A stretch of 64,000 bases of DNA from an uncultured Pseudoclavibacter sp. (GTDB lineage: Bacteria > Actinomycetota > Actinomycetes > Actinomycetales > Microbacteriaceae): NCBI GenBank assembly GCA_946221025.1, contig CAMIMS010000003.1, positions 2,512-66,511 of the forward strand. Reading direction: 5' to 3'. The notes under the pieces were generated by a model. It worked only from the letters and a program-made list of their open reading frames with translations. It ran no database searches and was not told the DNA's origin. The position numbers and the translations under genes were made by a program. Of this stretch, positions 15,181-32,408 are shown piece after piece (the first letter of the stretch is position 1; each line of letters begins with the position of its first letter).

Positions 15181-15266
15181 TGCGCGAGGGGGGACTTGAA
15201 CCCCCACGCCCTAATACGGGCACTAGCACCTCAAGCTAGCGCGTCTGCCTATTCCGCCACCCGCGC
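15181..15266 (-). tRNA. tRNA-Leu (anticodon GAG), type II with long variable arm, CCA not encoded
   Basis: hand-folded cloverleaf: acceptor GCGCGGG/CTCGCGC, 3-bp D-stem, anticodon loop TTGAGGT, 17-nt variable arm, T-arm GGGGG-TTCAAGT-CCCCC. Confidence 0.85.
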
Positions 15267-15337: not shown

Positions 15338-16699
15338 GTGAGTCGGGCCGGTAGCGTCGTGGTCATGGTGCCCGAGTCAGATCAGTCCCTTTCCGCCGGC
15401 GACACGCTCGAGAACGAGCCGGTCATCGCCACCACGAGAGACCTCATCCGGATGGATACGACCAACTACGGTCGTGGCAAATCCAACGGTGAGGCCGAGG
15501 CGGCCGAGTACATCGCAGACCGGTTGAAGGCGCTCGATCTCGATGTCACGATGCTCGAATCTGAGCCTGAGCGCGTGAGCCTCGTCACCCGAATCTCGGG
15601 GGCGAATCCCGAAAAGCCGGCACTCGTGGTGCACGGGCACACCGATGTGGTTCCCGCCGACCCGGCGGATTGGAGCGTAGATCCGTTCTCGGCCGAGATT
15701 CGCGACGGATGCATCTGGGGTCGCGGCGCAGTCGACATGAAGGATATGGACGCGATGATCCTCACGAGCCTGGAGGACATCATTCGCTCTGGCCGCCGGC
15801 CCGAACGAGACCTCATCGTCGCCTTCTTTGCCGATGAGGAGGACTCCGGTCACCTCGGGTCGCGGTACGTCGTCGATAACCGTCCCGACCTCTTCGAGGG
15901 CGCGACCGAAGCGATCTCTGAGGTCGGCGGCTACTCGGTGAATATCGGCGACAAGCGCGCGTACCTGCTGCAAACCGGCGAGAAAGCGCTCATGTGGCTC
16001 ACCCTTCGCGTGAAGCGTCCGGCCGGTCACGGCTCGCGCCTCGTTCCGGCGGAGAACAACGCCATTAGCGTGCTCGCGGGCGCGATCGCGCGGCTCGTCG
16101 AGCACGAATGGCCGGTTCGCCTGAACGAGACCACCGAGCAAATGGTCGATGCGCTCTCGCAACTCCTCGGCATGGACGGATCAGACCCCCACGCCGTGGC
16201 GACAAAGTCCGGCAAAGCGGCGGGCTTCCTCACCGCGAGCCTGCGCACCACCGTCAACCCGACCATGCTCAACGCCGGTTACAAGCACAATGTGATTCCC
16301 GAAACCGCGAGCGTCGCGATCGACGTTCGCCCGTTCCCGGATGAAGAGGATGCGGTCCTCGCCGAGATTCAGCGCATCGTTGGCGACGACATCGAAATCG
16401 AGACGAACTCGCGCGATGTCGGCACGCGCGCTCCCGTCGACTCGCCGCTGACGCAGACCGCCACGAGCATCCTCGAGCGCCATGACCCCGGCGCCCAGGT
16501 CGTCCCGTACTTCCTGTCGGCCGGCACTGACAACAAGGCCCTGTCGCGACTTGGCATCAACGGCTACGGGTTCGTGCCCCTGAAGCTGCCCGCCGACATG
16601 GACTTCCCGGCCATGTTCCACGGGGTGGATGAGCGCGTGCCGCTCGAATCGCTCGTGTTCGGCAAGCAGGTGCTCACCGACTTCCTGCTCGAGTACTGA
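15338..16699 (+). CDS. M20 family metallopeptidase (DapE/ArgE-like)
   Basis: VVHGHTDVVPAD...GRGAVDMKD are M20 metal-binding motifs; GTG at 15338 or ATG at 15365. Confidence 0.82.
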   Translation: MSRAGSVVVMVPESDQSLSAGDTLENEPVIATTRDLIRMDTTNYGRGKSNGEAEAAEYIADRLKALDLDVTMLESEPERVSLVTRISGANPEKPALVVHGHTDVVPADPADWSVDPFSAEIRDGCIWGRGAVDMKDMDAMILTSLEDIIRSGRRPERDLIVAFFADEEDSGHLGSRYVVDNRPDLFEGATEAISEVGGYSVNIGDKRAYLLQTGEKALMWLTLRVKRPAGHGSRLVPAENNAISVLAGAIARLVEHEWPVRLNETTEQMVDALSQLLGMDGSDPHAVATKSGKAAGFLTASLRTTVNPTMLNAGYKHNVIPETASVAIDVRPFPDEEDAVLAEIQRIVGDDIEIETNSRDVGTRAPVDSPLTQTATSILERHDPGAQVVPYFLSAGTDNKALSRLGINGYGFVPLKLPADMDFPAMFHGVDERVPLESLVFGKQVLTDFLLEY

Positions 16700-16789: not shown

Positions 16790-17638
16790 ATGGATTGGTT
16801 CACGGCGATCGTGCTGGGACTCGTGCAGGGACTGACTGAGTTTCTGCCGATCTCATCCAGCGCGCACCTGCGGATCGTGGGGGAGTGGCTGGGTCAAGAC
16901 CCCGGCGCGTCGTTCACCGCGATCACGCAGATCGGCACCGAGATCGCCGTTCTCGTCTACTTCTGGCCGGACATCATCCGCATCATTCGCCAGTGGATCG
17001 GCTCGCTGACCGGCAAGGTCCCGAAGGACGATCCGGATGCGCGCATGGGCTGGTACGTGATCATCGGATCCATCCCGATCGTGCTCGCGGGCGTGCTCCT
17101 GCAGTCGCTCATCCGCACGACCTTCCGGTCGCTGTGGTTCACGGGCGTGATGCTCATCGTCTTCGGCATCATTCTCGGCGTGGCCGACATCCTCGGCCGC
17201 CAGCACAAGAAGCTCGAACAGCTGAACGCGCGCGACGGCATCATCTACGGCCTCGCACAGTGCCTCGCCCTCATCCCCGGCGTCTCGCGCTCTGGAGGAA
17301 CGCTCACGGCCGGGCGCATGCTCGGATACGACCGCGCCGCTGCGACGCGCTACGCATTCCTCCTCGCGATCCCCGCCGTGTTTGGCGCGGGGCTGCATGA
17401 GATCTATTCGGTGTTCACGGATGATGAGACCGCGGCCGTGTCGTGGGGTCCGACGATCATCGCCACGATCATCGCGGGCATCACCGGATGGCTCGTGATC
17501 AAGTTCCTGATGCAGTACGTCGAGCGTCACACCTATGTGCCGTTCGTGCTCTACCGCATCGCTCTTGGCACGCTGGTGCTGGTGCTGCTCGCCTTCGGTG
17601 TCATGTCGGGTGAGCCGCCGCAGGTTCCGGCGACCTAG
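16790..17638 (+). CDS. uppP: undecaprenyl-diphosphate phosphatase
   Basis: [27 protein letters not shown] is the BacA/UppP signature. Confidence 0.92.
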
Positions 17639-17679: not shown

Positions 17680-18981
17680 GTGCGAGAGATTGCGAGCTGG
17701 CCACGCCCCGAAGTGCCGAAGCTTCCGGGCAAGAACGACCCGATCGGCATCTTCGATGGTCGCTTCGGTGAGGTTCGCCAAAGCGACAACGGCGAAACAG
17801 CGACGCTGTACGTCTGCGGCATCACGCCGTACGACGCCACCCACCTCGGTCACGCCGCCACCTACATCGCCTTCGACACGCTGCAGCGCGCGTGGCTTGA
17901 TGCGGGGCTCCAGGTGCGAACCGCGCAGAACGTGACCGATGTCGACGATCCGCTTTTCGAACGGGCGAACGCCACCGGCGCCGACTGGCGAGCACTCGCA
18001 AAAGCGCAAACCGATCTCTTCCGCGCCGATATGACGGCCCTTCGGGTCATTCCGCCCGACCACTACGTGCGGGTTCAGGATGCGGTCGATGAGATCGCAT
18101 CCGCGGTCGCCGCCCTCATCGAGCGCGACCTCGCGTATGACGTGCCGATCGACGAGAACGCCGACCCGAAGCCCGTCGATGAGAACGCGCGCGATATCTA
18201 TTTCGATCTCGAGCGCGCCCAGCGGCTTCCGGGCGTGCTTCAGACGATGGATGTCTCTCGCTTTGAGCCGATCGACCTCGAATACGTGTTTCGTGAGTTC
18301 GGCGGAGACCCGGACCGCCCAGGCAAACGCGGCCGGCTGGATCCGCTCCTGTGGCGCGCCGCCAGGCAGGGCGAACCTGCCTGGGAGACGAGCGTTGGCC
18401 TGGGCCGGCCCGGTTGGCACATCGAGTGCGCCTGCATCGCGAATGGCACGCTCGGGGAGACCGTCACCGTGCAGGGCGGCGGACGCGACCTGACCTTCCC
18501 GCATCACGAGATGAGCGCTCAGCACGCGAGCGCCCTGACCGGCAAGCCGTTCGCGCGCACTTTCCTGCACGCCGGTCTCATTGCCTACCGGGGCGAGAAG
18601 ATGTCGAAGTCGCTCGGAAACCTCGTCCTCGTCTCAAAGCTCGTCGAAGCCGGTGTAGATCCGGCCGCGATTCGCCTCGCGATCCTGTCTCACCGCTACT
18701 CGGCCGATTGGGAGTGGACCGACGGTGGCTTGGCGACTGCCGCAGCGAGGCTCGGTGTGTGGCGAAACGCGCTCCGGCGCCTGCGCGCGGGGAACGCCGC
18801 GAGTGCGGAGGTGACCGGAGACGCGGACCCCTCGCCGACGCTCACGCGCATGCGTGCCGCGCTCGCGAACGACCTCGACACCCCCGCCGCAATCGCAGCC
18901 GTTGATGCCTGGGCCGAGAACCCGTCCGGACAGCGCGATGTTCCCGCGGCCGTGGATGCGCTCCTGGGCATCAGACTGTGA
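17680..18981 (+). CDS. mshC: cysteine:1D-myo-inosityl 2-amino-2-deoxy-alpha-D-glucopyranoside ligase (mycothiol ligase)
   Basis: SWPRPEVPKLPG...YVCGITPYDATHLGHAATY...KMSKSLGN is a CysRS paralog with the MshC N-terminus; GTG start. Confidence 0.9.
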   Translation: MREIASWPRPEVPKLPGKNDPIGIFDGRFGEVRQSDNGETATLYVCGITPYDATHLGHAATYIAFDTLQRAWLDAGLQVRTAQNVTDVDDPLFERANATGADWRALAKAQTDLFRADMTALRVIPPDHYVRVQDAVDEIASAVAALIERDLAYDVPIDENADPKPVDENARDIYFDLERAQRLPGVLQTMDVSRFEPIDLEYVFREFGGDPDRPGKRGRLDPLLWRAARQGEPAWETSVGLGRPGWHIECACIANGTLGETVTVQGGGRDLTFPHHEMSAQHASALTGKPFARTFLHAGLIAYRGEKMSKSLGNLVLVSKLVEAGVDPAAIRLAILSHRYSADWEWTDGGLATAAARLGVWRNALRRLRAGNAASAEVTGDADPSPTLTRMRAALANDLDTPAAIAAVDAWAENPSGQRDVPAAVDALLGIRL

Positions 18982-19012: not shown

Positions 19013-19822
19013 TTAGAACGCGCGGTTTTCCTCCGCAGCAATGACGGCTATCTCGGTGCCAGAGTCGGGGTCTCGAGCGAGTAGCTCGCCGAGGTCGGGG
19101 CGGTGGGTGGCCAAGAAGCCGTGGCGAATCGACGTCGCGATGCTCGCGAGCATTGGCGGCTGGAAGGCAAAGAGCCCCGGTGTCGCGAGAAGCCGGTCGC
19201 GGTAGTCGGCGAGCGAGATCTCAACCACCGGCGCTCCCAGGCGCAGTGCCACGTCTGCGATCGTGAATGCGGGCCCGGTCAAGTCGTAGGTTCGACCGAC
19301 GTGCTGGTGCGCGGCAACGGCAACCCGCGCGGCAGCTTCCGCGAGGTTTTCGCGAGTGGCCGCGGCAACGGCGCCTGATCCGAAGGGAGAAAGGATTCTT
19401 TCCTCATCCCAAATGACCAAACCGCCAATGAGCTCGGCGTAGAGGCCGTTTCGCAGGATCGTCCACCCAATCCCGCTCTCCATGATCATGCGCTCCGTGG
19501 CCCGATGGGCAAGGGCGAACGCGAGATGGTCGCCCTCCGCGGCAAGGCTCGTATAGATCACGTGATTGACGCCATCGCGCTTAGCCGCATCCAGAACGTT
19601 GCCGTGCCGCGCCACCACCGAATCGTCTTCCGCATAGCCCGCAGAGACGAGCACCAGCGTCGAAACGCCGCGCAGGTCCAGTGTGGATGGCCGGTCGAAG
19701 TCCATGAGCATCCCATCCGCGTCCGGGGTGCGGCTCCCACCTATCACATCTGCTCCGAGCTCGCGGATGTGGTGAAGGATTCGGGAGCCGAGGTGGCCGT
19801 TTGCGCCGGTGACGAGAATCAT
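19013..19822 (-). CDS. NmrA-family NAD(P)-binding oxidoreductase
   Basis: MILVTGANGHLGSRIL is a Rossmann motif; divergent from an HxlR regulator (a common pairing). Confidence 0.8.
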   Translation of the reverse strand: MILVTGANGHLGSRILHHIRELGADVIGGSRTPDADGMLMDFDRPSTLDLRGVSTLVLVSAGYAEDDSVVARHGNVLDAAKRDGVNHVIYTSLAAEGDHLAFALAHRATERMIMESGIGWTILRNGLYAELIGGLVIWDEERILSPFGSGAVAAATRENLAEAAARVAVAAHQHVGRTYDLTGPAFTIADVALRLGAPVVEISLADYRDRLLATPGLFAFQPPMLASIATSIRHGFLATHRPDLGELLARDPDSGTEIAVIAAEENRAF

Positions 19823-19841
19823 CAGTCACGCCTTTCGTTGT

Positions 19842-19858
19842 GGTTATCGTGAGTAACC
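19842..19858. promoter_or_regulatory. imperfect inverted repeat GGTTAT-cgtga-GTAACC in the NmrA/HxlR divergent promoter
   Basis: seen directly; candidate operator of the HxlR-type regulator. Confidence 0.3.
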
Positions 19859-19917
19859 GGGTCGGGTTTCGACCTCATCCTGAGGCGCCGCGAATACCCG
19901 CACAAGGAGGCACTTTC

Positions 19918-20364
19918 ATGTCAGTCGGGCACACCGGAGTAACCGCCGCCTCGCGCGAAGATGCGGCGATGCTCGAACCCTGTGGGAGCGCCGATCACCC
20001 CGACTGCGGCATCCGGGATGTCCTCGATCGCGTGGGCGACAAGTGGTCGGTGCTCGTCATCGTCGAGCTGGCGTCGGGCCCCCGCCGATTTCGCGAGCTG
20101 CAGCGCGCGATCGACGGGATCTCTCAGCGGATGCTCACTGTGACGCTGCGCCGGCTCGAACGGGACGGACTCGTTATTCGCACGGTCTATCCGACCGTCC
20201 CCGCCCAGGTTGACTACCGACTCACGGGAATCGGCGCGAGCCTCACGCACCTCGTTAAAGCCCTCGCTGATTGGTCGCTCGAGCATCGAGCAGCCATCGC
20301 CCAGGCCCGAGTTGATTACGACGGGCGCGACGCATCGCCGAGCGCTTCAGCCGTGGATGCCTAG
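19918..20364 (+). CDS. HxlR-family winged-helix transcriptional regulator
   Basis: VLDRVGDKWSVLVIVELASGPRRFRELQRAI...TVPAQVDYRLT; AAGGAGG RBS 7 nt upstream of ATG 19918. Confidence 0.85.
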   Translation: MSVGHTGVTAASREDAAMLEPCGSADHPDCGIRDVLDRVGDKWSVLVIVELASGPRRFRELQRAIDGISQRMLTVTLRRLERDGLVIRTVYPTVPAQVDYRLTGIGASLTHLVKALADWSLEHRAAIAQARVDYDGRDASPSASAVDA

Positions 20365-21440
20365 TCGGCCAAATCGCCACTCGACGGTTGCGTGCCGGGC
20401 TGACCGTCCTCGTCGTCACGGTTGACGCGTGCATCCGGGGTGATCGGCTCATCCGTCGCTCGCGGCTGGCCGAGCCGGCGCGTCGATGGATGCGATGCCT
20501 GGCCCTTCGGCGGCTGCGGCTGGGACTGCTCAAGGAATCGCTCGAATTCCCTCGCGATTGCTTCGCCCGATGCCTCCGGCGCTTCGACCGTGTCGTAGGT
20601 GCTCTCGAGGAACGAGATGTAGCGAACGAGATCCTCATCTTCGGCGGTCATCTCGTTGATCTCCGCTTCCCAGGTCTCGACCTCGCTGAGGAGCTCCGAG
20701 CGCGGAATCGACAGGTCGAGCACTTCTTCGAGCTTGTCGAGCAGGGCGGATACGGCCTTCGGGGATGGGGATGAGTGCGCGTAGTGCGGAACGGACGCCC
20801 AGAGGCTCAGCGCCCGCAAATCGTCGCGCTCTCGAATAGCCGCGGAAATGATGCCGAGGATGCCGGTCGGCCCCTCGTACTCGCTCCGGCTGACGCCGAG
20901 CTCATCCCGCACGATCGCGTCGTCACTTGATGCGTAAACGGGGATGGGGCGGGTGTGCGGCGCGTCGGCCAGGAGCGCCCCGACCAGCACGATGCGCGTG
21001 ATCTCATGCTCATCAACGAATTCGATGACGCGCTTCGCGAACGTTTTCCATCGAAGGGTCGGCTCCACACCGCTCATGACGTAGATGCGCGAGTTTGAAG
21101 CCGAGATGCGCATTCCAGCGTCGGCGGCGATGTCATCGCCGCGCTCATCCGGGTTTTTCGGGCCGGTCACGACGATGTTGGGCCACACGATCTCGCGTTC
21201 GCCGCCGTTGAACTGCACCATCGGTCGGTGCAGCGAGTAGTCAAAGAACACTTCGTCGTCGCAGTTCCACAGCAGCTCCGACCGGTCGGCGAGGTGACGA
21301 CGAACCATTGAGACCGCATCGCTCGCGGCATCTCCGGCGTCGTTCCACCCGCGCAGACCGATCACGAGTGTTCGTCCGTCGGCAAACCCGTCCTTTTCGG
21401 ACGGGTCGTGAGCGGTGGATGAGTCGTGGTTCTCGGTCAC
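20361..21440 (-). CDS. PAC2-family (proteasome assembly chaperone-like) protein, Rv2125 homolog
   Basis: 359 aa; by synteny it occupies the mycobacterial Rv2125 position between mshC and trmI; shares CTAG stop with HxlR gene. Confidence 0.7.
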   Translation of the reverse strand: MTENHDSSTAHDPSEKDGFADGRTLVIGLRGWNDAGDAASDAVSMVRRHLADRSELLWNCDDEVFFDYSLHRPMVQFNGGEREIVWPNIVVTGPKNPDERGDDIAADAGMRISASNSRIYVMSGVEPTLRWKTFAKRVIEFVDEHEITRIVLVGALLADAPHTRPIPVYASSDDAIVRDELGVSRSEYEGPTGILGIISAAIRERDDLRALSLWASVPHYAHSSPSPKAVSALLDKLEEVLDLSIPRSELLSEVETWEAEINEMTAEDEDLVRYISFLESTYDTVEAPEASGEAIAREFERFLEQSQPQPPKGQASHPSTRRLGQPRATDEPITPDARVNRDDEDGQPGTQPSSGDLAD

Positions 21441-21593
21441 ATATCTCCTGACGGCGGCTGTGCGCCACCCGGTCGAGCTCGACCGGTGCTGGCAACACCA
21501 TCAAGAATAGGCGCGCGATCGCACGAGAATGCGGGGGCGCGACTGCGCGTCGATAGACTCGGGCGCCATGATTGCCGCCGTCGAGGTTTGCCA

Positions 21594-22706
21594 GTGAGCG
21601 CGAATCCCATTCCGATTCGCGGACCCTTCCAGCCCGGTGAGCGCGTGCAGATCACCGGCCCGAAGGGGCGCCTGTCGACGGTGCACCTGGAGCCCGGCGC
21701 CCGCTGGTTCACGCATCGCGGATGGATTGAGCACGACGACATCATCGGCCGCGATGACGCCTCGGTGGTGGTGGCATCTGACGGGGTGGAGCATCTCGTG
21801 ATGCGACCGCTCATGAAGGACATCGTCATGTCGATGCCCCGCGGCGCCGCGATCATCTACCCGAAGGATGCCGCGCAGATCCTCGCGAAGGCGGATATCG
21901 CTCCCGGCCAGCGAGTGGTCGAAGCGGGCCTCGGTTCGGGGGCTCTCAGCCTCTGGCTGCTTCGCACACTCGGTGGCTCCGGCGAGCTTGTCTCGTTCGA
22001 GCGCCGCGAGGAGTTCGCGGATGTGGCGCGCGGCAATGTGCACAGCGTGCACGGTCAGTCGCCACCGAATTGGCGCGTCGAGATCGGCGACCTGCAGGTG
22101 GCTCTGCCGGATGCGGTCGAGCCCGGGAGCGTCGATCGGGTTGTGCTCGACATGCTCGCCCCGTGGGAGTGCCTGGATGTCGTTGCCGGCGCCCTCACCC
22201 CGGGCGGGGTGCTGTGCTGTTACGTCGCAACGGTCACGCAACTTTCGCGCCTGACCGAAGCGATCCGTGACACGGAACGATTCACCGAGCCCGAGTGCAA
22301 CGAAACGATGGTGCGCGGGTGGCACGTCGACGGCCTTGCGGTTCGCCCCGATCACCGAATGGTCGGGCACACGGCATTCCTGCTCACCTGCCGGCGCATG
22401 GCGGATGGCTCCAAGCCGCTGCAGAAGAAGCGTCGCGGGTCGAAAACCGATTACACCGCCGAGGATGTCGAAATCTGGACTCCGGGGGCGCTCGGTGAGC
22501 GTGACATCAGCGACAAGCAGCTGCGAAAGCGTGCGAGGCGTGCGATGCGGGGGGCTGCGGCCGTTGCCTGCGAGCTCGATTCACCGGCGGAGCGCGATTC
22601 CACCACGTCACCGGCGGGTGAGACCATGAGCGACAGTGAGGCGCCCGCGGGCCCCGCACCCCACCCGGCACCCGCGGAAACGACACAACGAGAGGACACC
22701 GCGTGA
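21594..22706 (+). CDS. trmI: tRNA (adenine58-N1)-methyltransferase with about 90-aa C-terminal low-complexity extension
   Basis: class I SAM methyltransferase motif VVEAGLGSGALS plus the TrmI N-domain; GTG start at 21594. Confidence 0.82.
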   Translation: MSANPIPIRGPFQPGERVQITGPKGRLSTVHLEPGARWFTHRGWIEHDDIIGRDDASVVVASDGVEHLVMRPLMKDIVMSMPRGAAIIYPKDAAQILAKADIAPGQRVVEAGLGSGALSLWLLRTLGGSGELVSFERREEFADVARGNVHSVHGQSPPNWRVEIGDLQVALPDAVEPGSVDRVVLDMLAPWECLDVVAGALTPGGVLCCYVATVTQLSRLTEAIRDTERFTEPECNETMVRGWHVDGLAVRPDHRMVGHTAFLLTCRRMADGSKPLQKKRRGSKTDYTAEDVEIWTPGALGERDISDKQLRKRARRAMRGAAAVACELDSPAERDSTTSPAGETMSDSEAPAGPAPHPAPAETTQREDTA

Positions 22707-23725
22707 TTCCAAACCGATCGCGTTCCGCCAACGTCCGCCCCGCGGCGCTTCTGAGCGCCGCGCTTCTGCCGCTCTGGCTCGCGATGACCGGATGCACCGC
22801 GAGCGCGCAGAGCGATATGCCGGCGTTCGAATGCGAGTCCTCAGTCGAATCGGGCCCCGTGCTCGACTCGGTCGCCGTCAGTGGTCAGTTCGGGAATGCC
22901 ATCACGCTGAATCCGACGGGGGATATGACGGTCGACCAGCTGGTCGCGCACAGGCAGGGCGAGGGCGACGGGCGCCTGGTAACCGAGCGCGGCGTCATCG
23001 ATGCGAACTACACGATCGTGGACATGAGCAACGGCGCAGTGCTCGCACCGTACCGTCCGTTCACGATCACCGCTGACGAGAACTCCGCCGCAACGACAAT
23101 GGACGCGATCGCGGCGCAGCTGCCCGGGATCGCATCGGCGATGCAGTGCGCACGTGAGGGGCAGCGCGTCATCGCGGCCATGCCGATGTCGACGCTGTTC
23201 GGCGACGAGTCGGGAACATCGCTGCCGGTCGACACCTCCGTCGTCGTCGGGGTCGACATCGTGCGCGTGTACTCGTCAAGCGCCTCAGGCGTCGTCTCGA
23301 TGCCCAAGGACGGGTTCCCGGCCGTCGTGACGGCGCCCGACGGGCGGCCCGGCGTCACCATGCCGAAGGCTCCGGCCCCGGCCAACGAGCGCGCGTGGAT
23401 GCGCATCACCGGTCACGGGCCGACAGTCGCAGCGGGCGAGCAGGCGACCATTCACATGTCGATCTTCGACTGGGAGTCGGGCGAGGAGCTCGCCTCTACG
23501 TGGGATGCGCGAAACTCGGTCATCCGCGTTCCAATCGACCCGAACAACGATGGCATCTACGGGCTCACCAAGCACCTCGAGGGGCAGCCGACCGGGTCAC
23601 AGCTCGTGGCCGTCGTTCCCGCGGCCCGTGTGGCCGAAGCGCAGGGGCCGCTGCATCCGCAACTCGTCGCCGGGCGAACGCTCGTCGTCGTGGTCGATGT
23701 GCTCGGAACGGACGGTGCCGCCTAA
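22703..23725 (+). CDS. lipoprotein with C-terminal FKBP-like domain
   Basis: lipobox LAMTGC; C-terminal region resembles FKBP PPIase; GTG start overlaps trmI stop. Confidence 0.65.
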   Translation: MIPNRSRSANVRPAALLSAALLPLWLAMTGCTASAQSDMPAFECESSVESGPVLDSVAVSGQFGNAITLNPTGDMTVDQLVAHRQGEGDGRLVTERGVIDANYTIVDMSNGAVLAPYRPFTITADENSAATTMDAIAAQLPGIASAMQCAREGQRVIAAMPMSTLFGDESGTSLPVDTSVVVGVDIVRVYSSSASGVVSMPKDGFPAVVTAPDGRPGVTMPKAPAPANERAWMRITGHGPTVAAGEQATIHMSIFDWESGEELASTWDARNSVIRVPIDPNNDGIYGLTKHLEGQPTGSQLVAVVPAARVAEAQGPLHPQLVAGRTLVVVVDVLGTDGAA

Positions 23726-24639
23726 TGCTCGACGCACGCCGTCGCACGGCGAAACTCGCCATCACCCTCATCACCGCATCCCTGGCCCTGACCGGCTGCT
23801 CGGGCTCAGAAACCGAATCAACGACCATCTCGCAGAGCGTTCAGGTCTCGGACAACTACGGCGAGGCGCCCCGGGTGACGATCGGCGACACCTCCGGGCT
23901 CGGCACTGAGATCGAGCGAGAGATTCCTCACGAGGGAACGGGCGAGGTATTCACCGAGAACGACATCATCGTCGGTAGCAGCGTCATTTACGACGCGACC
24001 GACGGACGGGAGCTCGTCGCGTATGCGCCGCTCTCACAACCGTTCACGCTCACCTCGCAGGGCATCCCGCCCGTGTTCCGCGAAGCGTTCCAGGGGATTC
24101 GAAGCGGGTCGCGCGTGGCTGCCCTCATCCCGGGTTCGAAGATCGATGATTCGAACCAGTCAACGCACGCGGTGCTATTCGTCGCTGACGTCGAGCGACT
24201 CGAGCACACTGCCGCCTGGGGTGCACCCCAGGCACCGACGCAGACGCAGGTGACCGTCACCGACGGTGCGGATGGAGCGCTCGGCACCGTGACGGTCGAC
24301 TCGTCAAGCCCCGCGCCGACAGACCTCGTTCTCGACACGATCAAGCGGGGCGATGGGAAGGTCGTCACCGATGGAAGTTCGGTGGTGGTGCAGTACCGCG
24401 GCCTGCTCTACGACACGGGCGAGATCTTCGATGAGAGCTGGGCAAGAGACCTGCCCGCGCAGTTCGCCACGAATCAGGTCGTGCCGGGGTTCTCGCGGGC
24501 ACTGATCGACCAGACCGTTGGCTCCCGCGTGATCGCGATCATCCCGCCGGAGCTCGGCTATGGCGAGCAGGGGTCGGGAGACTCCATCCCGCCGAACTCG
24601 ACGCTCGTGTTCGTGATCGACATTCTCGGCGTGCTGTAG
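23725..24639 (+). CDS. FKBP-type peptidyl-prolyl cis-trans isomerase lipoprotein
   Basis: lipobox LALTGC; DGSSVVVQYRGLLYDTGEIFDES...LVFVIDILGV is an FKBP domain; TAATG coupling with upstream paralog. Confidence 0.8.
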   Translation: MLDARRRTAKLAITLITASLALTGCSGSETESTTISQSVQVSDNYGEAPRVTIGDTSGLGTEIEREIPHEGTGEVFTENDIIVGSSVIYDATDGRELVAYAPLSQPFTLTSQGIPPVFREAFQGIRSGSRVAALIPGSKIDDSNQSTHAVLFVADVERLEHTAAWGAPQAPTQTQVTVTDGADGALGTVTVDSSSPAPTDLVLDTIKRGDGKVVTDGSSVVVQYRGLLYDTGEIFDESWARDLPAQFATNQVVPGFSRALIDQTVGSRVIAIIPPELGYGEQGSGDSIPPNSTLVFVIDILGVL

Positions 24640-24687
24640 ACGAATGCGCACGAACCCGGATCGTCTCTGGCTCGAAAGCGGGCGCTG

Positions 24688-25725
24688 ATGGGGGAGCGGA
24701 TCTCGGCTGAGGAGCGTCAGTTTTCGCTCATTCTGGCGCTCATCGCTTCGCCTGCCGGCCTGAAGAAGCGAGACATTCTCGCGACTGTGAACGGGTACTC
24801 GCAGGATGCGAAAAACGGGGTCCCGGTCGAGAACCTCGAGCGGCGCTTCGAGCGAGACAAAGTCGATTTGCGCGAACTCGGCATTCCCGTTGACGTGTTC
24901 GATGACCCCGCCCATCCGGGCGACAATCGCGAATCTCGCTATCGCATTACCGAGGGCTCGTTCGCACTGGATGAGGGAATCACATTCGACGCCGACGAGA
25001 CAGCGCTCCTGGAGGCTGCGGCCGGCGTTTGGGCGCGGGGGAGCCTGTCGCTCGAATCGCAGCGAGGGCTTGCGAAGCTTCGGTCTCGCGGAGTCTCGAC
25101 CGCGAACCAGCACATCGGCGTCGCCCCGAGGCTCCGCAGCCGCGAGGCGGCGTTCGAGCCGCTGGCCGCCGCGATCGAGCGCGGACGCATCGTGGAGTTC
25201 TCGTATCGAAAGCCCGGATCCAATTCCACGGAACGGCGAAGACTCGCTCCCCACGCGCTCGTGCAGGCTGGCGGGAGGTGGATGGTCGGCGGGCACGATC
25301 TCGACCGGGAGGCAGACCGACGCTTTTTGCTCAGTCGCATTGAGGGAAGCGTTCGCGACGTAGGGCCGGCACCGTCACACCTGCGAACGAGCGAAGATGC
25401 GGCAAGCCGGCACCGCGCCGAACTCGACCGACTCGCCGAATCGCAGCGCGCGACGGTCGCGCTGCGACCCGGCAGCGATGCCGCGGTCAGACTCTCGCGC
25501 CGAGGGAGAGCGCCTGCTGAACGCAGTGCGGTCGCGTCGTGGCCCACGGTCGAGATTCCCTACGTCGATATCGAAGTGCTGGCGGATGAGCTCGCAGGGT
25601 TCGGACCAGAAGTTCGCGCGATCGCGCCAGCTGAGCTCGCCGAGCGCATCGCACAACGGCACCGGCAAACGATCGACACGCATGCCGCGCGCGTGGCAGA
25701 TGACGATTCGGGGCGGGAACGGTGA
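24688..25725 (+). CDS. pafB: proteasome accessory factor B (HTH plus WYL domain transcriptional regulator)
   Basis: N-terminal HTH (LILALIASPAGLKKRDIL), central WYL region, position upstream of pafC-tatA-tatC-helY. Confidence 0.85.
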   Translation: MGERISAEERQFSLILALIASPAGLKKRDILATVNGYSQDAKNGVPVENLERRFERDKVDLRELGIPVDVFDDPAHPGDNRESRYRITEGSFALDEGITFDADETALLEAAAGVWARGSLSLESQRGLAKLRSRGVSTANQHIGVAPRLRSREAAFEPLAAAIERGRIVEFSYRKPGSNSTERRRLAPHALVQAGGRWMVGGHDLDREADRRFLLSRIEGSVRDVGPAPSHLRTSEDAASRHRAELDRLAESQRATVALRPGSDAAVRLSRRGRAPAERSAVASWPTVEIPYVDIEVLADELAGFGPEVRAIAPAELAERIAQRHRQTIDTHAARVADDDSGRER

Positions 25726-26726
25726 GCCCGACGAGGGAGCAGCCCGACGGCCTCGTGCTGCTGGTGGCGCTTGTTCCGTTCCTTCGACGCCAGGATGGGC
25801 CGATCAGCGTCGATGAACTCGCGACTCAGTTCGGAACGAGCCCAAAGCACATGCGGGAAACCGTGCGCCTTCTCGCGATGAGCGGTGCTCCCGGCGATAG
25901 CGGCGCCTACCTCGATGCTGACCTCTTCGACATCGACTGGGACCTGTTCGAGGAGCACGACGAGGTGTGGGTCACGCACTTCGTCGCGCTCGAGCACACC
26001 CCGAACCTGTCGAACCGCGAGGCGGCCGCGTTGCTTGCGGGCATCCAGCAGCTTCGCTCGGCGGGTAGCCTCGTTGATGCGGCGCTCGTCGAGCGGGGGA
26101 CGGCCAAACTGACGAGCGCGACGCCGAGCTCGACCTTCGATCGACTCGCGTCGATCTCACCCGAGATCAACGACGCCACCTCGCGGGAAGCGCAGTTGAT
26201 CTCAACGGCGATCGCGAGCTCGCGTCGCGTTCGCTTTCTCTACGCATCCCCGACGTCTCCTGCCGCCGTTCGCACCGTGGATCCGGCAAGCCTTGAAGCC
26301 ATCGACGGTGACCGGTACCTGAGCGGCTGGTGCCTCGAACGGGATGCGCCCCGGCGCTTTCGACTCGACCGGATGCGTGACCTTGAAGTGCTCGAGGATG
26401 CGGCCGAAGAGCACGAGATTCCCGTGACCAACGTCACGTACACGCCGGGTGAGAGCGATGTCGAGGTTCAACTGCGCGTGGCCGAATCGGTCATGCCTCA
26501 GGTGCGAGAGTTCCTCCCGCCGTCACGGCGCATCCCGAAGCCCGACGCGACCGGATGGCGGAGCATCACCGTGCAGATGGGTTCCCTCGACGCGCTTTCG
26601 CGCCTGGTCGCAGCCAATGCCGGACAGATTGTGGTCGTGTCGCCACATGCTGCTCGGGATGCGGTTCGTCAGTGGAGCGAGACGGCTCTGGCGACCGCTC
26701 GTCAGACCGCTGTGACCGAATCGTGA
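25722..26726 (+). CDS. pafC: proteasome accessory factor C (WYL domain)
   Basis: LVLLVALVPFLRRQDGPISVDELATQFG HTH; RFRLDRM WYL-type motif; GTG start overlapping pafB stop. Confidence 0.85.
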   Translation: MSPTREQPDGLVLLVALVPFLRRQDGPISVDELATQFGTSPKHMRETVRLLAMSGAPGDSGAYLDADLFDIDWDLFEEHDEVWVTHFVALEHTPNLSNREAAALLAGIQQLRSAGSLVDAALVERGTAKLTSATPSSTFDRLASISPEINDATSREAQLISTAIASSRRVRFLYASPTSPAAVRTVDPASLEAIDGDRYLSGWCLERDAPRRFRLDRMRDLEVLEDAAEEHEIPVTNVTYTPGESDVEVQLRVAESVMPQVREFLPPSRRIPKPDATGWRSITVQMGSLDALSRLVAANAGQIVVVSPHAARDAVRQWSETALATARQTAVTES

Positions 26727-26751
26727 CCATTTCTCAGCATTCCGCGTAAGC

Positions 26752-27117
26752 TTGGGTTCCATGTTGCCGTGGTGGTCGTGGGTTCTGATCTGGGGAGGAT
26801 GCGTTGTCATCCTCGTCGCAGTGCTCGCGATTCTCGGTGTCCAACTGTTCCGCAAGTTTGAGGCGCTGAGCTCCGAACTCGAGAGGTTCTACGACCTGAT
26901 CGATGCGTTCGAAGCCCGCGCCGAGGAACTCGTAACGCCATACGAGCCACGCCCCAACGCCATCCTGCGCGGACCCGCGGCAGTCGCGGCAGAACGTGAG
27001 GAGCTTCGCCGTCGCATCGACGCGCGCAAACTCGCAAGCCGTGAACGCCGAATCGCGAAGGGCCGCCGCCTCGTCAACGACGATCCGCTCAAATACGCCC
27101 ACCTGGTCAGAAAGTAG
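26752..27117 (+). CDS. small single-TM membrane-anchored coiled-coil protein (hypothetical)
   Basis: N-terminal TM WWSWVLIWGGCVVILVAVLAILGV then charged helical region; TTG start 26752 or ATG 26761. Confidence 0.5.
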   Translation: MGSMLPWWSWVLIWGGCVVILVAVLAILGVQLFRKFEALSSELERFYDLIDAFEARAEELVTPYEPRPNAILRGPAAVAAEREELRRRIDARKLASRERRIAKGRRLVNDDPLKYAHLVRK

Positions 27118-27127
27118 GTAGCCGATC

Positions 27128-27400
27128 ATGCAAGGACTCACCGGCTGGCACTTGGTTGTTCTTCTCGTTCTGGTGCTGCTGCTGTTCGGCGCCTCCAAGC
27201 TGCCGAACCTCGCGCGCAGCCTCGGGCAGTCAATGCGCATCTTCCGCAGCGAAGTGCGCACGATGAGCGACGAGCGCGAAGCCGACGCTGCCCGCAAGGA
27301 AGAGCTGCGCTCCGGCAGCGACTCGGCGGCAACCCGCGTTACTGACCCCGCTCGTTCGACGGTCGATCCCGATCGGGACGACCGCACCGGCACGCGCTAG
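27128..27400 (+). CDS. tatA: twin-arginine translocase subunit TatA
   Basis: HLVVLLVLVLLLFGASKLPNLARSLGQSMRIFRSEV is the TatA TM plus amphipathic helix. Confidence 0.92.
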   Translation: MQGLTGWHLVVLLVLVLLLFGASKLPNLARSLGQSMRIFRSEVRTMSDEREADAARKEELRSGSDSAATRVTDPARSTVDPDRDDRTGTR

Positions 27401-27405
27401 CGAGG

Positions 27406-28272
27406 GTGACGGCTTCGCGTTCGGCGAATGCCTCCGGCCGAGACGATCGCGACCGCAGCAAGAAGAAACGCCGACAAAAACGTTCCCGCAACCCCGATGG
27501 GCGGATGCGGCTGGTCGAGCACCTGACCGAGTTTCGCAACCGCTTCATCGTGTGCGCGATTGCGATCCTCATCACGACGATCATCGGGTTTGCACTGACC
27601 ACACCGGTACTGGACGCCATCCGCGTTCCGGTTGAACAGTTGGATGCCGGGCGTACGGGCACCACCGCTATCAACTGGACCAATGTGACGACCGCGTTCG
27701 ACCTGCGCATGCGCATGGGCATCACGCTCGGCATCGTGCTCGCCTGCCCGGTCTGGCTCTACGAAATATGGATGTTCGTGATGCCCGGCTTGAAGAAGGC
27801 CGAGCGTCGCTACGTGATCGGCTTCGTCGCATCTGCAGTGCCCCTGTTCCTGGCGGGATGCGTGACCGGTTGGCTCGTGCTTCCACGCATTGTTGACGTG
27901 ATGGCGAGCTTCGCGCCGACTCCGGATGCGGTGCTCTTTGACGCGAGGGCGTACTACGACTTCGTGCTAAACCTGTGCCTCGCGGTGGGCGTCGCGTATG
28001 TGATTCCCGTGTTTCTCGTCATGCTGAACCTCGCCGGCGTGCTGTCGGGTAAGGCGATTTTGTCGGCGTGGCGATGGGCGGTTCTCGGCATCGCGGTATT
28101 CGCGGCTATGGCGACGCCCGCGGCTGATGTTCTCTCGATGTTCCTGCTCATGATTCCGATGACAGTGCTGTATTTTCTCGCCGTCGGTGTGGCACTTCTC
28201 AACGATCGCCGTAGGGTGAAGCGCGAGCACAAACGCCAGGAACAGATCGAAGAAGAACTCGCCAATAGATAA
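27406..28272 (+). CDS. tatC: twin-arginine translocase subunit TatC
   Basis: MRLVEHLTEFRNRFI then 6 TM helices; basic N-terminal extension as in mycobacterial TatC; GTG 27406, alternative ATG 27505. Confidence 0.88.
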   Translation: MTASRSANASGRDDRDRSKKKRRQKRSRNPDGRMRLVEHLTEFRNRFIVCAIAILITTIIGFALTTPVLDAIRVPVEQLDAGRTGTTAINWTNVTTAFDLRMRMGITLGIVLACPVWLYEIWMFVMPGLKKAERRYVIGFVASAVPLFLAGCVTGWLVLPRIVDVMASFAPTPDAVLFDARAYYDFVLNLCLAVGVAYVIPVFLVMLNLAGVLSGKAILSAWRWAVLGIAVFAAMATPAADVLSMFLLMIPMTVLYFLAVGVALLNDRRRVKREHKRQEQIEEELANR

Positions 28273-30786
28273 ATGAACCCCCGAGAGCTGAGCCCCGCCG
28301 AACGGATGGCCGCAGCCCGAGCGCGTCGGAATCATCCCATCCTCGAACAATTCGCGGCAGAGCTGCCGTACGACCTCGACCCGTTCCAGCGCGAGGCGGG
28401 GGAGCAGCTTGAAGACGGCCACAGCGTGCTCGTGGCCGCCCCCACAGGTGCGGGCAAGACAATGGTCGCGGAATTCGCGGTCTATCTGGGAATGCGGGAT
28501 GCCCGCGACAAGATCTTTTACACCGCGCCCATTAAGGCGTTGAGCAATCAGAAATTCAACGAACTGACTGAGCGGTACGGCGCCGCCGAGGTGGGCCTTC
28601 TCACGGGCGACACCAATGTGAACCCCAGGGCGCGCATCGTGGTGATGACTACCGAAGTGCTTCGCAACATGCTCTACGCGGGCAGCGACCTGCTCGAGAA
28701 TCTCGCATTCGTCGTGATGGACGAGGTGCACTACCTCGCCGATCGGTTCCGCGGCGCGGTGTGGGAAGAGGTCATCATTCACCTGCCGCAGCACGTGCGG
28801 CTCGTCTCGCTGTCGGCGACTGTTTCCAACGCCGAAGAGTTCGGAGACTGGCTCGAAGCGGTGCGTGGCGATACCCGCGTGATCGTTTCCGAGGATCGCC
28901 CGATTCCCCTCGACTACCACGTGCTCGTCGGCAACCGCATGCTCGAACTCTTCGCTACGCGCAAGGGAAACCGCACCGACCTGGTCAACCCGGACCTCGT
29001 GCAAGCGGTACGCCAGCGCGGTCGGCCGCAGGGCCGGGGGCCGCGCTCGCGTGGCCGTGGCGGTCGTAGCGGACCGCCCCTGACGCACGCCGACCGCGTT
29101 GATCGCCCGGAGCTTGCGCGCATGCTTGACGATGCGCGGATGCTCCCGGCGATTTTCTTCATTTTCAGCCGCAAGGGATGCGACGAGGCGGTCGAGCAGG
29201 TCAAACGCGCCGGAATCTCACTCACCACGCAAGAGGAGCGCGACGAGATCGCGTGGGTCGTGGAGGAGAGCACCCGAAACCTCGATGACGAGGACCTCGC
29301 GGTCCTCGGCTACTTCGAGTGGTTCGAGGGGCTGCAGCGCGGCATTGCTGCGCATCACGCGGGGCTTCTTCCCACGTTCAAAGAGGTCGTGGAGGAACTC
29401 TTCCGGCGAAAGCTCGTGAAGCTCGTATTCGCGACCGAAACGCTCGCCCTCGGCATCAACATGCCGGCGCGCACCGTCGTTCTCGAACGACTCGAGAAGT
29501 TCAACGGTGAGTCTCGCGTGCCGATCACGCCGGGGGAGTTCACCCAGCTCACCGGCCGCGCGGGTCGCCGCGGCATCGATGTCGAAGGGCATGCGCTGGT
29601 CGTGTGGCGAGATGGCATGAACCCGCAGGCCGTCGCCTCGCTCGCCTCGAAACGCACCTACCCGCTGAACTCATCCTTCCGGCCCACCTACAACATGACC
29701 GTGAACCTCATCGACCGCTTCGGTCGGGAGCGCACCCGGGATGTGCTCGAGTCATCATTCGCGCAGTTCCAGGCCGACCGCGCGGTCGTCGATCTTGCCC
29801 GGCGAGCCGCTCAGCAGCGCGAGTCGCTCGAGGGGTACGCCGAGGCGATGCAGTGTCACCTCGGCGACTTTCTCGAGTACTCGCAGATTCGCCGCGAGCT
29901 GTCGGATGAAGAAAAGAACCGCATCCCCGAAGACGCTCCGCGGGCTCACGCGCTGCGCTCTGAGCGGCAGAAACGTCTGCACGCGCTTCGCGAGCAGATG
30001 CGCCGCCACCCCTGCCACCACTGTCCGGATCGTGAGGACCACGCCCGCTGGGCCGAACGGTACTGGCGCCTGAAGCGCGACACCGACCGGCTCGTTCGAC
30101 AGATCGATGCACGCACCGGCGCGATCGCGGCGGTGTTCGACCGGTTGGCGGACCTCCTCATCGAGCGGGGATACCTGACCGAGAGCGACCGACCACTTGA
30201 CGTCGAGGCTGACGAGCCTGCTCCGGGTGACGAGGCGTCACCCGCGAATGCCGAATCGGGCGACGACACGGTCGCGCTGACCGTGCACGGGCATACGCTC
30301 AAACGCATCTACGGCGAGCGAGACCTGCTTATCGCCGAATGCATCCGCCGCCAAGCCTGGATTCGCCTGGATGCGGCGGGGCTCGCCGCGATGGCCGCCG
30401 CGCTCGTCTACGAGCCGCGCCGAGACGAAGAGAACCCGCCAGAGCGGTTCCTCCCAAAGGGCGCATTCAGGGATGCGCTCGAGCGCACCAGCGAACTGTG
30501 GGAAGAGCTCGACGAGCTTGAAGACCGCTACCGGGTACCGCGCACCCAGCCGCTTGCGACGGGCCTCGCGCCGGCAATGCACCGCTGGGCTCGCGGGGGG
30601 CGTCTGGACTCCGTGCTCGAGCGTGCGGATATGCAGGCGGGCGACTTCGTGAGGTGGTCAAAGCAGGTGCTCGATTTGCTCGATCAGCTCGCAAAGGTCG
30701 CCGAGGGCGGGCTGCGGTCGACCGCGATTGAGGCCCAGGATGCGGTTCGTCGCGGCATCGTCGCAATGGCGAGCGTCGGCGCATGA
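28273..30786 (+). CDS. helY: Ski2-like DEAD/DEAH-box ATP-dependent RNA helicase
   Basis: APTGAGKT, DEVHY, SATVSN motifs; 837 aa; conserved position after tatC. Confidence 0.9.
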   Translation: MNPRELSPAERMAAARARRNHPILEQFAAELPYDLDPFQREAGEQLEDGHSVLVAAPTGAGKTMVAEFAVYLGMRDARDKIFYTAPIKALSNQKFNELTERYGAAEVGLLTGDTNVNPRARIVVMTTEVLRNMLYAGSDLLENLAFVVMDEVHYLADRFRGAVWEEVIIHLPQHVRLVSLSATVSNAEEFGDWLEAVRGDTRVIVSEDRPIPLDYHVLVGNRMLELFATRKGNRTDLVNPDLVQAVRQRGRPQGRGPRSRGRGGRSGPPLTHADRVDRPELARMLDDARMLPAIFFIFSRKGCDEAVEQVKRAGISLTTQEERDEIAWVVEESTRNLDDEDLAVLGYFEWFEGLQRGIAAHHAGLLPTFKEVVEELFRRKLVKLVFATETLALGINMPARTVVLERLEKFNGESRVPITPGEFTQLTGRAGRRGIDVEGHALVVWRDGMNPQAVASLASKRTYPLNSSFRPTYNMTVNLIDRFGRERTRDVLESSFAQFQADRAVVDLARRAAQQRESLEGYAEAMQCHLGDFLEYSQIRRELSDEEKNRIPEDAPRAHALRSERQKRLHALREQMRRHPCHHCPDREDHARWAERYWRLKRDTDRLVRQIDARTGAIAAVFDRLADLLIERGYLTESDRPLDVEADEPAPGDEASPANAESGDDTVALTVHGHTLKRIYGERDLLIAECIRRQAWIRLDAAGLAAMAAALVYEPRRDEENPPERFLPKGAFRDALERTSELWEELDELEDRYRVPRTQPLATGLAPAMHRWARGGRLDSVLERADMQAGDFVRWSKQVLDLLDQLAKVAEGGLRSTAIEAQDAVRRGIVAMASVGA

Positions 30787-32408
30787 CCCAAACCGCGTCG
30801 CGTCAACACCGGTTCGCCCCGGCGCCACGGCGAGATTGGATCGGCGAAACGCCACGAGTCCCCGCGTCCTCGAGAGTCGTGGCGCTCTGCGCGGCGGCAC
30901 TGTCCGGGCTTCTGCTCGCCCTGAGTTTTCCGCCCTACGGGATGTGGCCGCTTGCCCTGGTCGCGCCCGGCCTGTTCGCGTATTCGATTCGCGGCCGCGG
31001 GTTCTGGGCCGGTGCCGGACTCGGATTCGTGTCCGGCTTCGCGTTTTACACCCCGCTCGTTTCCTGGACCTCACTCTTTCTCGGGCCGGTGCCGTGGATG
31101 GCGCTCGCCGTCGCGATGGGCGGAACATTCGCCCTCGGCGGAGCGTTCATGGCGCTCGCCACCCCATCCGCAGAGGAGGATGACCGCCCCTGGTGGTCGC
31201 AGTTCGTGCTCGGCCCCCTCGTGCTCGCCGGGATCTGGACGCTTCGCGAATCACTCTTCTCGATGTGGCCGTGGGGCGGATTCGCGTGGGGGAGACTCGC
31301 GCAATCTCAGGCGGGAAGCCCCCTTGCTGAAATCGTCGCGTGGACGGGACTGTCCGCGATGGGCACGCTGATTGCCTGGTGGTCGATCGCCGGCATGGAG
31401 GTGCTGCTTGCCGCTCACCGCACACCGCGTGCGCGACCGGATCGGGTTCACCTGCCTGCGCTCGGCGCAGCGTTCGCCGTGCTCATGCTCGCGCCGTCGT
31501 GGCAGCTTCCCGAGCACGGAACCGTTCGCGTGGCCGCGGTGCAGGGGGACACTCCCGAGTCGGCGTACTTCATTCCCTCAGAGCCGGGCTACATCCTGCA
31601 GCGATACCTCGACGTGACGCGCGAAACGGTGCCAGAGAACGGGAGAGTAGAGGCGATCCTCTGGCCCGAAGGCTCGCTTGATTCCAGCCCCGAATACGTT
31701 CGTTCGACTGATCGGAAACTCCGCGGACTCAGCAGCGAATACGGTGGCGCTCCGATTGTCGCGAACACGGTCACCATTTCGGATGAGAACGGCGAAGAGC
31801 GGTATTTCAATACGCAGTTCACCCTCACCGAGGACGGATGGCAACAAGACATTCAAAAAGTGCATCCGGTTCCATTCGGCGAGTACATTCCCGAGCGGGA
31901 TTTCTTTTACCTCTTGGCACCCGATCTCGTTGGCCTCGTGGAGCGCAGCTATTCGCCGGGGGATGGATGGGTTGTGCTCGATATCGCGGGGCACCCAGCG
32001 GGCACGCTCATTTGCTTCGACGTGATCGATGACGCGGCCGCCAGGGGAGCGGTGGCCCAGGGGGCCGAGTTCCTCTACCTTCCGTCGAATAACGCCGACT
32101 TCGGGCAAACGCACGAAGCCGATCAGCAACTCGCGTTCGGCACGCTTCGCGCGATAGAGACCGGCCGCACCGTCGTGCAGGTGTCAACGGTCGGTCATAC
32201 CGTCGTTATCGGCCCGGATGGGCGGGTCAAGCAGTCGCTCAACCAGTTCGAGTCCGGAGCAATCGTGGCGGACATACCGCTCGTGTCCGGGACAACCCCG
32301 GCGCTGGTGCTCGGCCGGGCGCTTGAACTGTTGGCGAGCGGCATTGGCGCGGTCGGTCTGTTCTCGCGCCTCGATGCGCGACGGCTCGCTCGGCGTTCGC
32401 GCGCCTAG
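30783..32408 (+). CDS. lnt: apolipoprotein N-acyltransferase (no Ppm1 fusion)
   Basis: N-terminal polytopic membrane domain plus C-terminal CN-hydrolase domain (WPEGS...TLICFD); ATGA overlap with helY. Confidence 0.85.
   Translation: MTQTASRQHRFAPAPRRDWIGETPRVPASSRVVALCAAALSGLLLALSFPPYGMWPLALVAPGLFAYSIRGRGFWAGAGLGFVSGFAFYTPLVSWTSLFLGPVPWMALAVAMGGTFALGGAFMALATPSAEEDDRPWWSQFVLGPLVLAGIWTLRESLFSMWPWGGFAWGRLAQSQAGSPLAEIVAWTGLSAMGTLIAWWSIAGMEVLLAAHRTPRARPDRVHLPALGAAFAVLMLAPSWQLPEHGTVRVAAVQGDTPESAYFIPSEPGYILQRYLDVTRETVPENGRVEAILWPEGSLDSSPEYVRSTDRKLRGLSSEYGGAPIVANTVTISDENGEERYFNTQFTLTEDGWQQDIQKVHPVPFGEYIPERDFFYLLAPDLVGLVERSYSPGDGWVVLDIAGHPAGTLICFDVIDDAAARGAVAQGAEFLYLPSNNADFGQTHEADQQLAFGTLRAIETGRTVVQVSTVGHTVVIGPDGRVKQSLNQFESGAIVADIPLVSGTTPALVLGRALELLASGIGAVGLFSRLDARRLARRSRA

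Follow-up and report, generated by a model that had tools for sequence, protein, structure and literature searches.

Actinobacterial genes for the Pup-proteasome system (PPS) lie in a conserved neighbourhood, exemplified by Mycobacterium tuberculosis (Rv2130c-Rv2092c) and Arthrobacter woluwensis (locus L075), in which genes for an M20 peptidase, uppP, mshC, a PAC2-family protein (minus strand) and trmI stand on one side of the arc/mpa-dop-pup-prcB-prcA-pafA block, and two FKBP genes, pafB, pafC, tatA, tatC, helY, lnt and rbpA (minus strand) stand on the other. Here we examine a 64-kb stretch of DNA (the window) from an uncultured member of the Microbacteriaceae (order Micrococcales), a relative of Pseudoclavibacter, which shares these flanking genes in the same order and orientation but from which the entire core found in loci such as L075 and L028 (i.e., arc, dop, pup, prcB, prcA, and pafA) is missing. 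The window thereby also differs from Corynebacterium/Micrococcus-type loci, where prcBA alone has been lost, as it is without the pupylation enzymes too. The initial annotation of this DNA had recognized that the locus is syntenic with the PPS locus of mycobacteria and streptomycetes, and this synteny is real. We think it likely that the PPS core was removed by a clean ancestral deletion, and that the PafBC pair and the PAC2/ParJ protein were retained with jobs independent of the proteasome.

Both groups of retained genes have been characterized in other actinobacteria. PafBC works by sigma adaptation, in which a -26 element is recognized by the helix-turn-helix (HTH) of PafB while PafC binds domain 4 of SigA (PMC8635444); the published ChIP consensus is tGTCgg-N10-tA-N3-T, with its GTC triplet read by R46 and R50 of Mycobacterium smegmatis PafB (PMC8635444). 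The M. smegmatis complex is described as activated by single-stranded DNA via its WYL domains and as acting through sigma adaptation of RNA polymerase-SigA (PMC8635444; PMC11804915). Deletion of pafBC leaves pupylation and degradation unaffected, and mycobacteria later clear RecA and further proteins of the PafBC regulon through the PPS. ParJ (SCO1662), a PAC2-family protein, counts among the near-universal signature proteins of actinobacteria; it takes ParA polymers apart, and chromosomes are not partitioned accurately in its absence (PMC4255298), although binding of ParA and promotion of its depolymerization are known only for Streptomyces coelicolor (Ditkowski 2010, as cited in PMC4255298).

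The Pup-proteasome core is absent from the window

Pfam scans, PDB structure matches, and the gene calls publicly available for identical contigs were used to assign the genes (Table 1). The Pfam scans covered the main open reading frames (ORFs) of the 64 kb that were supported by G+C content at third codon positions (GC3), including every ORF long enough for Arc, Dop, or PafA, and among these ORFs no Pup_ligase/Dop (PF03136), Pup, Proteasome (PF00227), or proteasomal-ATPase domain was found, nor any AAA with Prot_ATP_ID_OB domains. Likewise, tblastn searches of the window with Pfam-confirmed Arc, Dop, Pup (two sequences), PrcB, PrcA, and PafA from two related loci (L075 and L028) gave no match at E<=1e-3. 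No ORF in the window ended in the Pup-like C-terminus GG[QE], and the seven ORFs that ended in G[QE] were unlike Pup. Dop/PafA, Pup, ARC/Mpa, and PrcA/PrcB are thus all lacking within 64 kb, and the window is not a PPS locus; the earlier statement that arc/mpa, dop, pup, prcB, prcA, and pafA are missing between trmI and pafB is confirmed by the Pfam, tblastn, and C-terminus scans alike.

The expected site of the block is tightly packed. The stop codon of trmI and the start codon that follows share the sequence GTGA, the first FKBP gene runs 1 nt into the second, and pafB starts 48 bp after the second, so there is no room for PPS remnants. Two FKBP lipoprotein genes had been named as the sole content of the trmI-pafB interval, a description that is essentially right because the first gene is a full-length paralogue of the second (BLASTP E 2e-18, 26% identity) and both products carry a lipobox, although the 340-aa product of the first has no recognizable Pfam FKBP domain (no FKBP_C match even at E<=1). 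Wherever a PPS-positive locus extends far enough, its FKBP genes are located between pafA and pafB, and the same was observed in Arthrobacter and Streptomyces by Iyer 2008. The FKBP pair belongs to the ancestral neighbourhood, and the arc-to-pafA block is therefore exactly what the window lacks relative to that layout.

As the window comes from metagenome contigs, the block might be missing through misassembly or a chimeric join. However, the junction lies in identical gene order in two independent assemblies from different projects, one at JGI and one at ENA, and is therefore not a misassembly; the same order recurs in dozens of further contigs and in the genomes of isolates, one of them a complete chromosome. 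Composition is also uniform across the trmI junction, without a break at the locus, and G+C stays at 62-68% throughout the window. An assembly artefact is accordingly so improbable that it can practically be set aside.

The same junction occurs throughout the Microbacteriaceae

The best named homologues of the window TrmI (63-73% identity) all belong to Microbacteriaceae, including Pseudoclavibacter, Leifsonia, Paramicrobacterium, Herbiconiux, Agromyces, Microbacterium, and others, and species of Pseudoclavibacter were the closest cultured relatives in searches with both TrmI and the AidB-like protein described below. Stretches of up to about 21 kb were read from relatives. The cultured Pseudoclavibacter helvolus (L006, GCA_042652545.1) has the PPS-less order PAC2-(HAD)-trmI-FKBP(s)-pafB-pafC-small ORF-tatA-tatC-helY-lnt-rbpA, the complete chromosome of Herbiconiux sp. 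L3-i23 (L008, AP025737.1) has the same order with PPS genes absent from the locus, and three loci from metagenome-assembled genomes (MAGs) found in a TrmI scan of a genome collection (L003, L004, and L005) are PPS-less as well. Among complete Microbacteriaceae genomes, Agromyces badenianii (CP028913.1) and P. triregionum (OU365335.1) are further examples with this junction or the operon described below.

A metagenome scan with a TrmI alignment recovered 80 further loci, which were classified, where the TrmI match was usable, by the gene downstream of trmI. Fifty of them run straight from trmI into FKBP-pafB-pafC without any PPS match, while arc-dop-pup-prcB-prcA-pafA is fully seen in 4 and arc-dop-pup-pafA without prcBA in 5 (L028, L030, L032, L037, and L049); another 9 are PPS-positive with the contig ending within the block, and the contig ends too early for classification in the remaining 12. 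All three states, i.e., the full block (L075, L058, L055, and L082), pupylation genes without prcBA, and nothing, occur among close TrmI relatives. The PafA of L075 is 100% identical to that of A. woluwensis, a member of the Micrococcaceae in which prcBA is still present, and the PPS block at the trmI junction measures 6-7 kb in L075 and L028.

The initial annotation had implied that the missing core was peculiar to this genome, which is not borne out given the same junction in P. helvolus, Herbiconiux, and 50 scan loci: the PPS-less trmI-FKBP-pafB junction is the standard Microbacteriaceae arrangement. In our literature search, no paper was found that links Microbacteriaceae or Microbacterium to pupylation or its lack, and the family-wide loss seems to be little discussed although it is plain in public genomes. 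A PafA profile search returned only Micrococcaceae among its best 120 matches, which says nothing either way on Microbacteriaceae.

In a neighbour-joining tree of TrmI, 54 PPS-less sequences (the window, L003, P. helvolus, Herbiconiux, and the 50 scan loci) split from 18 PPS-positive loci, comprising Micrococcaceae and others, with 99/100 bootstrap support. The main PPS-less loci (n=53) have 57-71% TrmI identity to the window, and locus G+C ranges from 47% to 74% across the PPS-less clade, a span which indicates that the clade is deep. The simplest reading would be that the ancestor of this Microbacteriaceae-like clade lost the arc-to-pafA block in one clean deletion. A contiguous arc/mpa, dop, pup, prcB, prcA, and pafA segment would have been excised between trmI and the FKBP pair in the ancestor of a family-level clade, with the flanking genes kept in place and the FKBP genes brought into translational coupling with trmI. 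The retained neighbours would then not be orphaned proteasome accessories, but genes whose jobs never needed a proteasome.

PafB and PafC retain the features of a DNA-damage regulator

The pafB and pafC genes of the window overlap by 4 nt, and both products carry WYL and WCX domains, with an HTH_PafC domain in PafC. The best PDB match of the window PafB is M. smegmatis PafB (114.6 bits), to whose HTH its N-terminus aligns from residue 5; for the window PafC, the scores are 106 bits with the 6SJ9 PafC half, 73 bits with the PafC of M. smegmatis (7P5X, 3e-19), and only 19 bits with PafB. On domain architecture and similarity, the two are assigned as the genes of the PafBC heterodimeric WYL regulator. 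Residues R52 and R56 of the window PafB correspond to R46 and R50 of M. smegmatis, so that both promoter-reading arginines are conserved. Among the PafB sequences of PPS-less loci, the FERDK signature is present in 51/52, and the position equivalent to R46 is Arg in 35/52 and non-Arg in 17 (e.g., L039, L051, L062, and L069). In 16 loci that keep FERDK this position is Lys (EKMFERDK) with the R50 equivalent retained, and L060 reads FEHDK instead of FERDK.

The window pair thus shares with the PafBC of M. smegmatis (7P5X/9FND) and Arthrobacter aurescens (6SJ9) the adjacent HTH-WYL-WCX paralogues, the promoter-reading arginines, and a conserved promoter of the tGTCgg-N10-tA-N3-T type. It differs from them in that pafBC is not co-transcribed with pafA, since no pafA is present, and PafB has RWMV at the site of the name-giving WYL motif. 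The mycobacterial shut-off of regulon proteins by the PPS has no evident counterpart in the window lineage.

The candidate promoter (Table 1) is the only match to the consensus in the window. Situated between genes, it ends 7 nt short of the ATG of a leaderless gene for an AidB-like acyl-CoA dehydrogenase, homologues of which are named "alkylation response protein AidB-like" by some sources; a helicase gene follows with a 4-nt overlap, and this two-gene operon is conserved in relatives. The box recurs at the same offset in 3/4 orthologous promoters (L090, L095, and L096), or 4/5 counting the window. The operons that keep it belong to Pseudoclavibacter triregionum, a 2.6-Mb MAG, and Gulosibacter bifidus, and their spacers and flanks differ. 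The background rate of the motif is ~3e-6 per position (about 1.9 million positions scanned). Conservation of the box at a fixed offset while spacer and flanks differ supports the view that a putative PafBC regulon still works in a lineage whose trmI-pafB locus has no PPS. PafB and PafC would together form a WYL activator that is triggered by single-stranded DNA and adapts RNA polymerase-SigA to promoters with a -26 "tGTCgg" and a -10 element, and they would switch on DNA-repair genes, here at least the AidB-like dehydrogenase and helicase operon. Activity of PafBC in the window organism itself is a prediction from these sequence features.

Two other searches for sites in the window were negative. 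The strict RecA-NDp pattern TGTCRGTG-N8-TANNNT had 0 matches in the window, a pattern that is too strict, and inspection of the region upstream of an AlkZ-like glycosylase gene (49930-51066, minus strand) revealed no PafBC box. Herbiconiux, Agromyces, and Arthrobacter also have homologues of the AidB-like protein, but these lie in unrelated contexts, are probably paralogues, and were left out of the promoter comparison. The ORF directly upstream of the box (10675-11274, plus strand) encodes a probable lipoprotein with no significant Pfam match.

The retained genes might alternatively be relics, with pafB, pafC, and the PAC2 gene left purposeless by loss of the proteasome and drifting to pseudogenes. 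PafB and PafC are just 27-50% identical between PPS-less loci, and the first FKBP paralogue has lost its recognizable FKBP domain, both of which would fit such decay. Yet every locus long enough, across a deep clade, gave near-full-length in-frame tblastn matches to pafB, pafC, and the PAC2 gene; the complete HTH-WYL-WCX architectures are retained, as is the DNA-reading FERDK motif in nearly all sequences, and the matching promoter element is conserved before a repair-type operon. Published functions of PafBC and ParJ are, moreover, independent of the proteasome. We therefore regard decay as very unlikely. The initial annotation had offered proteasome-independent roles as one alternative, and this is supported here and already established in the literature for PafBC and ParJ.

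The PAC2-family protein is an orthologue of Rv2125/ParJ

The PAC2 gene product had been proposed to resemble Rv2125, and a check of the fold bears this out, with PF09754 detected at 157.7 bits and strong matches to the structures 5UN0 (Rv2125; 189 bits, E 1e-54) and 3MNF (182 bits, E 2e-52) that span residues 25-284. Scores against the other paralogue group were far lower, at 79 bits for Cgl1923 (2P90), 61 for Rv2714 (2WAM), and 45 for SCO1997 (3E35), with E from 4e-21 to 1e-10. A PAC2-family structure from Streptomyces avermitilis has been described as a ParJ orthologue. Judging from its PDB title, 3MNF is probably that structure. The window protein is strongly similar to the ParJ (SCO1662)/Rv2125 homotrimer (5UN0, 3MNF) and occupies the same place beside trmI and mshC, but it carries an insertion and a C-terminal tail that are missing in the crystallized proteins. 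The insertion comprises ~20 residues (~84-106) and the extra tail ~75 residues (285-359).

The eukaryotic PAC2 and archaeal PbaA/PbaB chaperones have the Pfam family PF09754 in common with the window protein. In contrast to these chaperones, the window protein lacks a C-terminal HbYX motif (its tail ends in ...SSGDLAD) and has no 20S partner genes in the 64 kb. The M. tuberculosis 20S proteasome itself apparently assembles without any dedicated factor (Bai 2017, as cited in PMC5515868). On similarity and position, the window protein is best assigned as the Rv2125/ParJ orthologue, and not as a demonstrated proteasome chaperone. The idea in the initial annotation of a proteasome chaperone left behind is therefore not borne out: with ParJ identity, no HbYX motif, and a mycobacterial 20S proteasome reported to be free of assembly factors, the puzzle of a chaperone without a proteasome dissolves. 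The protein would instead be linked to depolymerization of ParA and chromosome segregation. By analogy with S. coelicolor, ParJ activity may be expected in the window organism, in which parA lies outside the window.

Single loss, repeated loss, or relocation

Several observations weigh against a single ancestral loss of the PPS that left a running PafBC regulon. The TrmI tree is based on a single gene, neighbour joining, and a midpoint root. L004 (1445-9109) and L005 (5-9178) are PPS-less yet lie outside the main clade, with TrmI identities of 53% and 52%, respectively, so that more than one loss is possible; in both, trmI runs straight into a short FKBP gene and then pafB, and they may represent an independent loss. 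Searches for PPS genes covered the window and the relatives' stretches of up to about 21 kb. As for the regulon, the PafBC box is absent from the orthologous promoter of Pseudoclavibacter endophyticus (L094), the window contains a single site, where 0.6 would be expected by chance for a looser pattern, and the promoter of recA, the canonical PafBC target, lies outside the window. Lastly, reviews call the PPS universal, or Dop and PafA largely conserved, in Actinobacteria, though this is a generalization.

Such reviews would favour relocation, whereby arc-dop-pup-(prcBA)-pafA has moved elsewhere on the chromosome and pupylation persists. However, all organisms capable of pupylation are described as sharing a rigidly conserved order of the pupylation genes (PMC3511204), and tblastn of ~0.7 Mb of fetched PPS-less locus sequence found no PPS gene. 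In addition, the identical, tightly packed junction is found in 53 loci over the whole range of TrmI identity to the window given above, so relocation would have to be ancient and never reversed. Overall, relocation of the Pup system is unlikely, albeit less so than decay or artefact, and from the deletion favoured above we infer that pupylation is absent genome-wide in the window organism.

Neighbouring genes and other features of the window

The gene order mshC-PAC2-trmI...pafB-pafC-tatA-tatC-helY given in the initial annotation is real, but extra genes were left out of that description: NAD(P)-binding protein and HxlR regulator genes sit between mshC and PAC2, and a gene for a 118-aa membrane protein sits between pafC and tatA (Table 1). 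The divergent NAD(P)-binding/HxlR pair (19013-20364) had no tblastn match in any relative's locus and is a lineage-specific insertion; mshC adjoins PAC2 directly in several relatives, e.g., L003, L016, L025, and L026. P. helvolus carries a DAO oxidase and an ISL3 transposase between mshC and PAC2 instead. The stops of the HxlR and PAC2 genes overlap in the window. The 118-aa protein has an N-terminal transmembrane helix, and homologues lie between pafC and tatA in L006, L025, L029, and L042. Between PAC2 and trmI, a gene for a HAD-family hydrolase is present in P. helvolus (9264-10004) and Herbiconiux (L008; 9303-10004), and such a hydrolase is fused to TrmI in some other homologues (P0006 and P0008; 589-619 aa), whereas the window has no HAD gene there but a 153-bp divergent intergenic region (21441-21593).

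Table 1. Coordinates, strand, and supporting evidence for the genes and sites of the window discussed in the text
Feature	Position	Strand	Evidence and remarks
Candidate PafBC-dependent promoter, TGTCGG-N10-TACGGT, TGTCGGAGGGCGGGTCTACGGT	11290-11311	+	tGTCgg-N10-tA-N3-T consensus
AidB-like acyl-CoA dehydrogenase	11319-12527	+	Pfam
ResIII/DEAD helicase	12524-14305	+	Pfam; 4-nt overlap with AidB-like gene
M20 peptidase	15338-16699	+	
uppP	16790-17638	+	
mshC, Cys-tRNA-synthetase-like mycothiol ligase	17680-18981	+	PF01406, 252 bits; syntenic in relatives; left flank of conserved neighbourhood
NAD(P)-binding protein	19013-19822	-	Pfam
HxlR regulator	19840-20364	+	Pfam
PAC2-family protein (Rv2125/ParJ orthologue)	20361-21440	-	PF09754, 157.7 bits
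trmI, tRNA (adenine-N1) methyltransferase	21594-22706	+	PF14801, PF08704; last gene before missing block
Junction, expected site of arc-dop-pup-prcB-prcA-pafA	22703-22706	+	trmI stop overlaps next start, GTGA
Divergent FKBP-like lipoprotein, 340 aa	22703-23725	+	Lipobox LAMTGC
FKBP-type peptidyl-prolyl isomerase lipoprotein	23725-24639	+	PF00254, 74.8 bits; lipobox LALTGC
pafB (HTH-WYL-WCX)	24688-25725	+	WYL, WCX domains; PDB 7P5X/9FND M. smegmatis PafB, 6e-32
pafC (HTH_PafC-WYL-WCX)	25722-26726	+	PF19187, 83 bits; PafC half of 6SJ9, 2e-29
Small membrane protein, 118 aa	26761-27117	+	Gene call; no Pfam match
tatA	27128-27400	+	PF02416
tatC	27406-28272	+	PF00902
helY, Ski2-like DEAD/DSHCT helicase	28273-30786	+	PF00270, PF08148; right flank
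lnt	30783-32408	+	
rbpA	beyond lnt	- (opposite strand)	

Elsewhere the window consists of core chromosome that is ordinary for an actinomycete, with glgC/glgA, glpF/glpK, trpD, ctaE, qcrCAB, ctaFDC, pyrD, hisD, and dnaE. A tRNA-Leu(GAG) gene (15180-15266, minus strand) was the sole RNA gene detected in the window by Rfam and tRNA scans, and a promoter and terminator scan of the locus gave results at chance level. Besides the probable lipoprotein gene upstream of the PafBC box, ORFs with coding-like GC3 and no significant Pfam match were found at 3614-4885 and 39690-41114 (both on the minus strand).

Biological meaning

The arrangement is ordinary, already known biology for a family with abundant genome sequences, and what the retained genes do has been published. 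"Proteasome accessory factor" and "PAC2" are misleading names for the genes at this locus. In our assessment, the Microbacteriaceae as a whole, including the window organism, probably lack the pupylation machinery genome-wide and would thus form a large, culturable, naturally Pup-null clade in which the conserved PafBC DNA-damage regulon still runs. If so, the question arises of how such organisms, once the response is shut off, dispose of RecA and the other regulon proteins that the Pup-proteasome would otherwise remove. The family would accordingly be a convenient natural background in which to study how a PafBC-driven DNA-damage response ends without degradation by the Pup-proteasome, and what role the Rv2125/ParJ protein plays when no proteasome exists.

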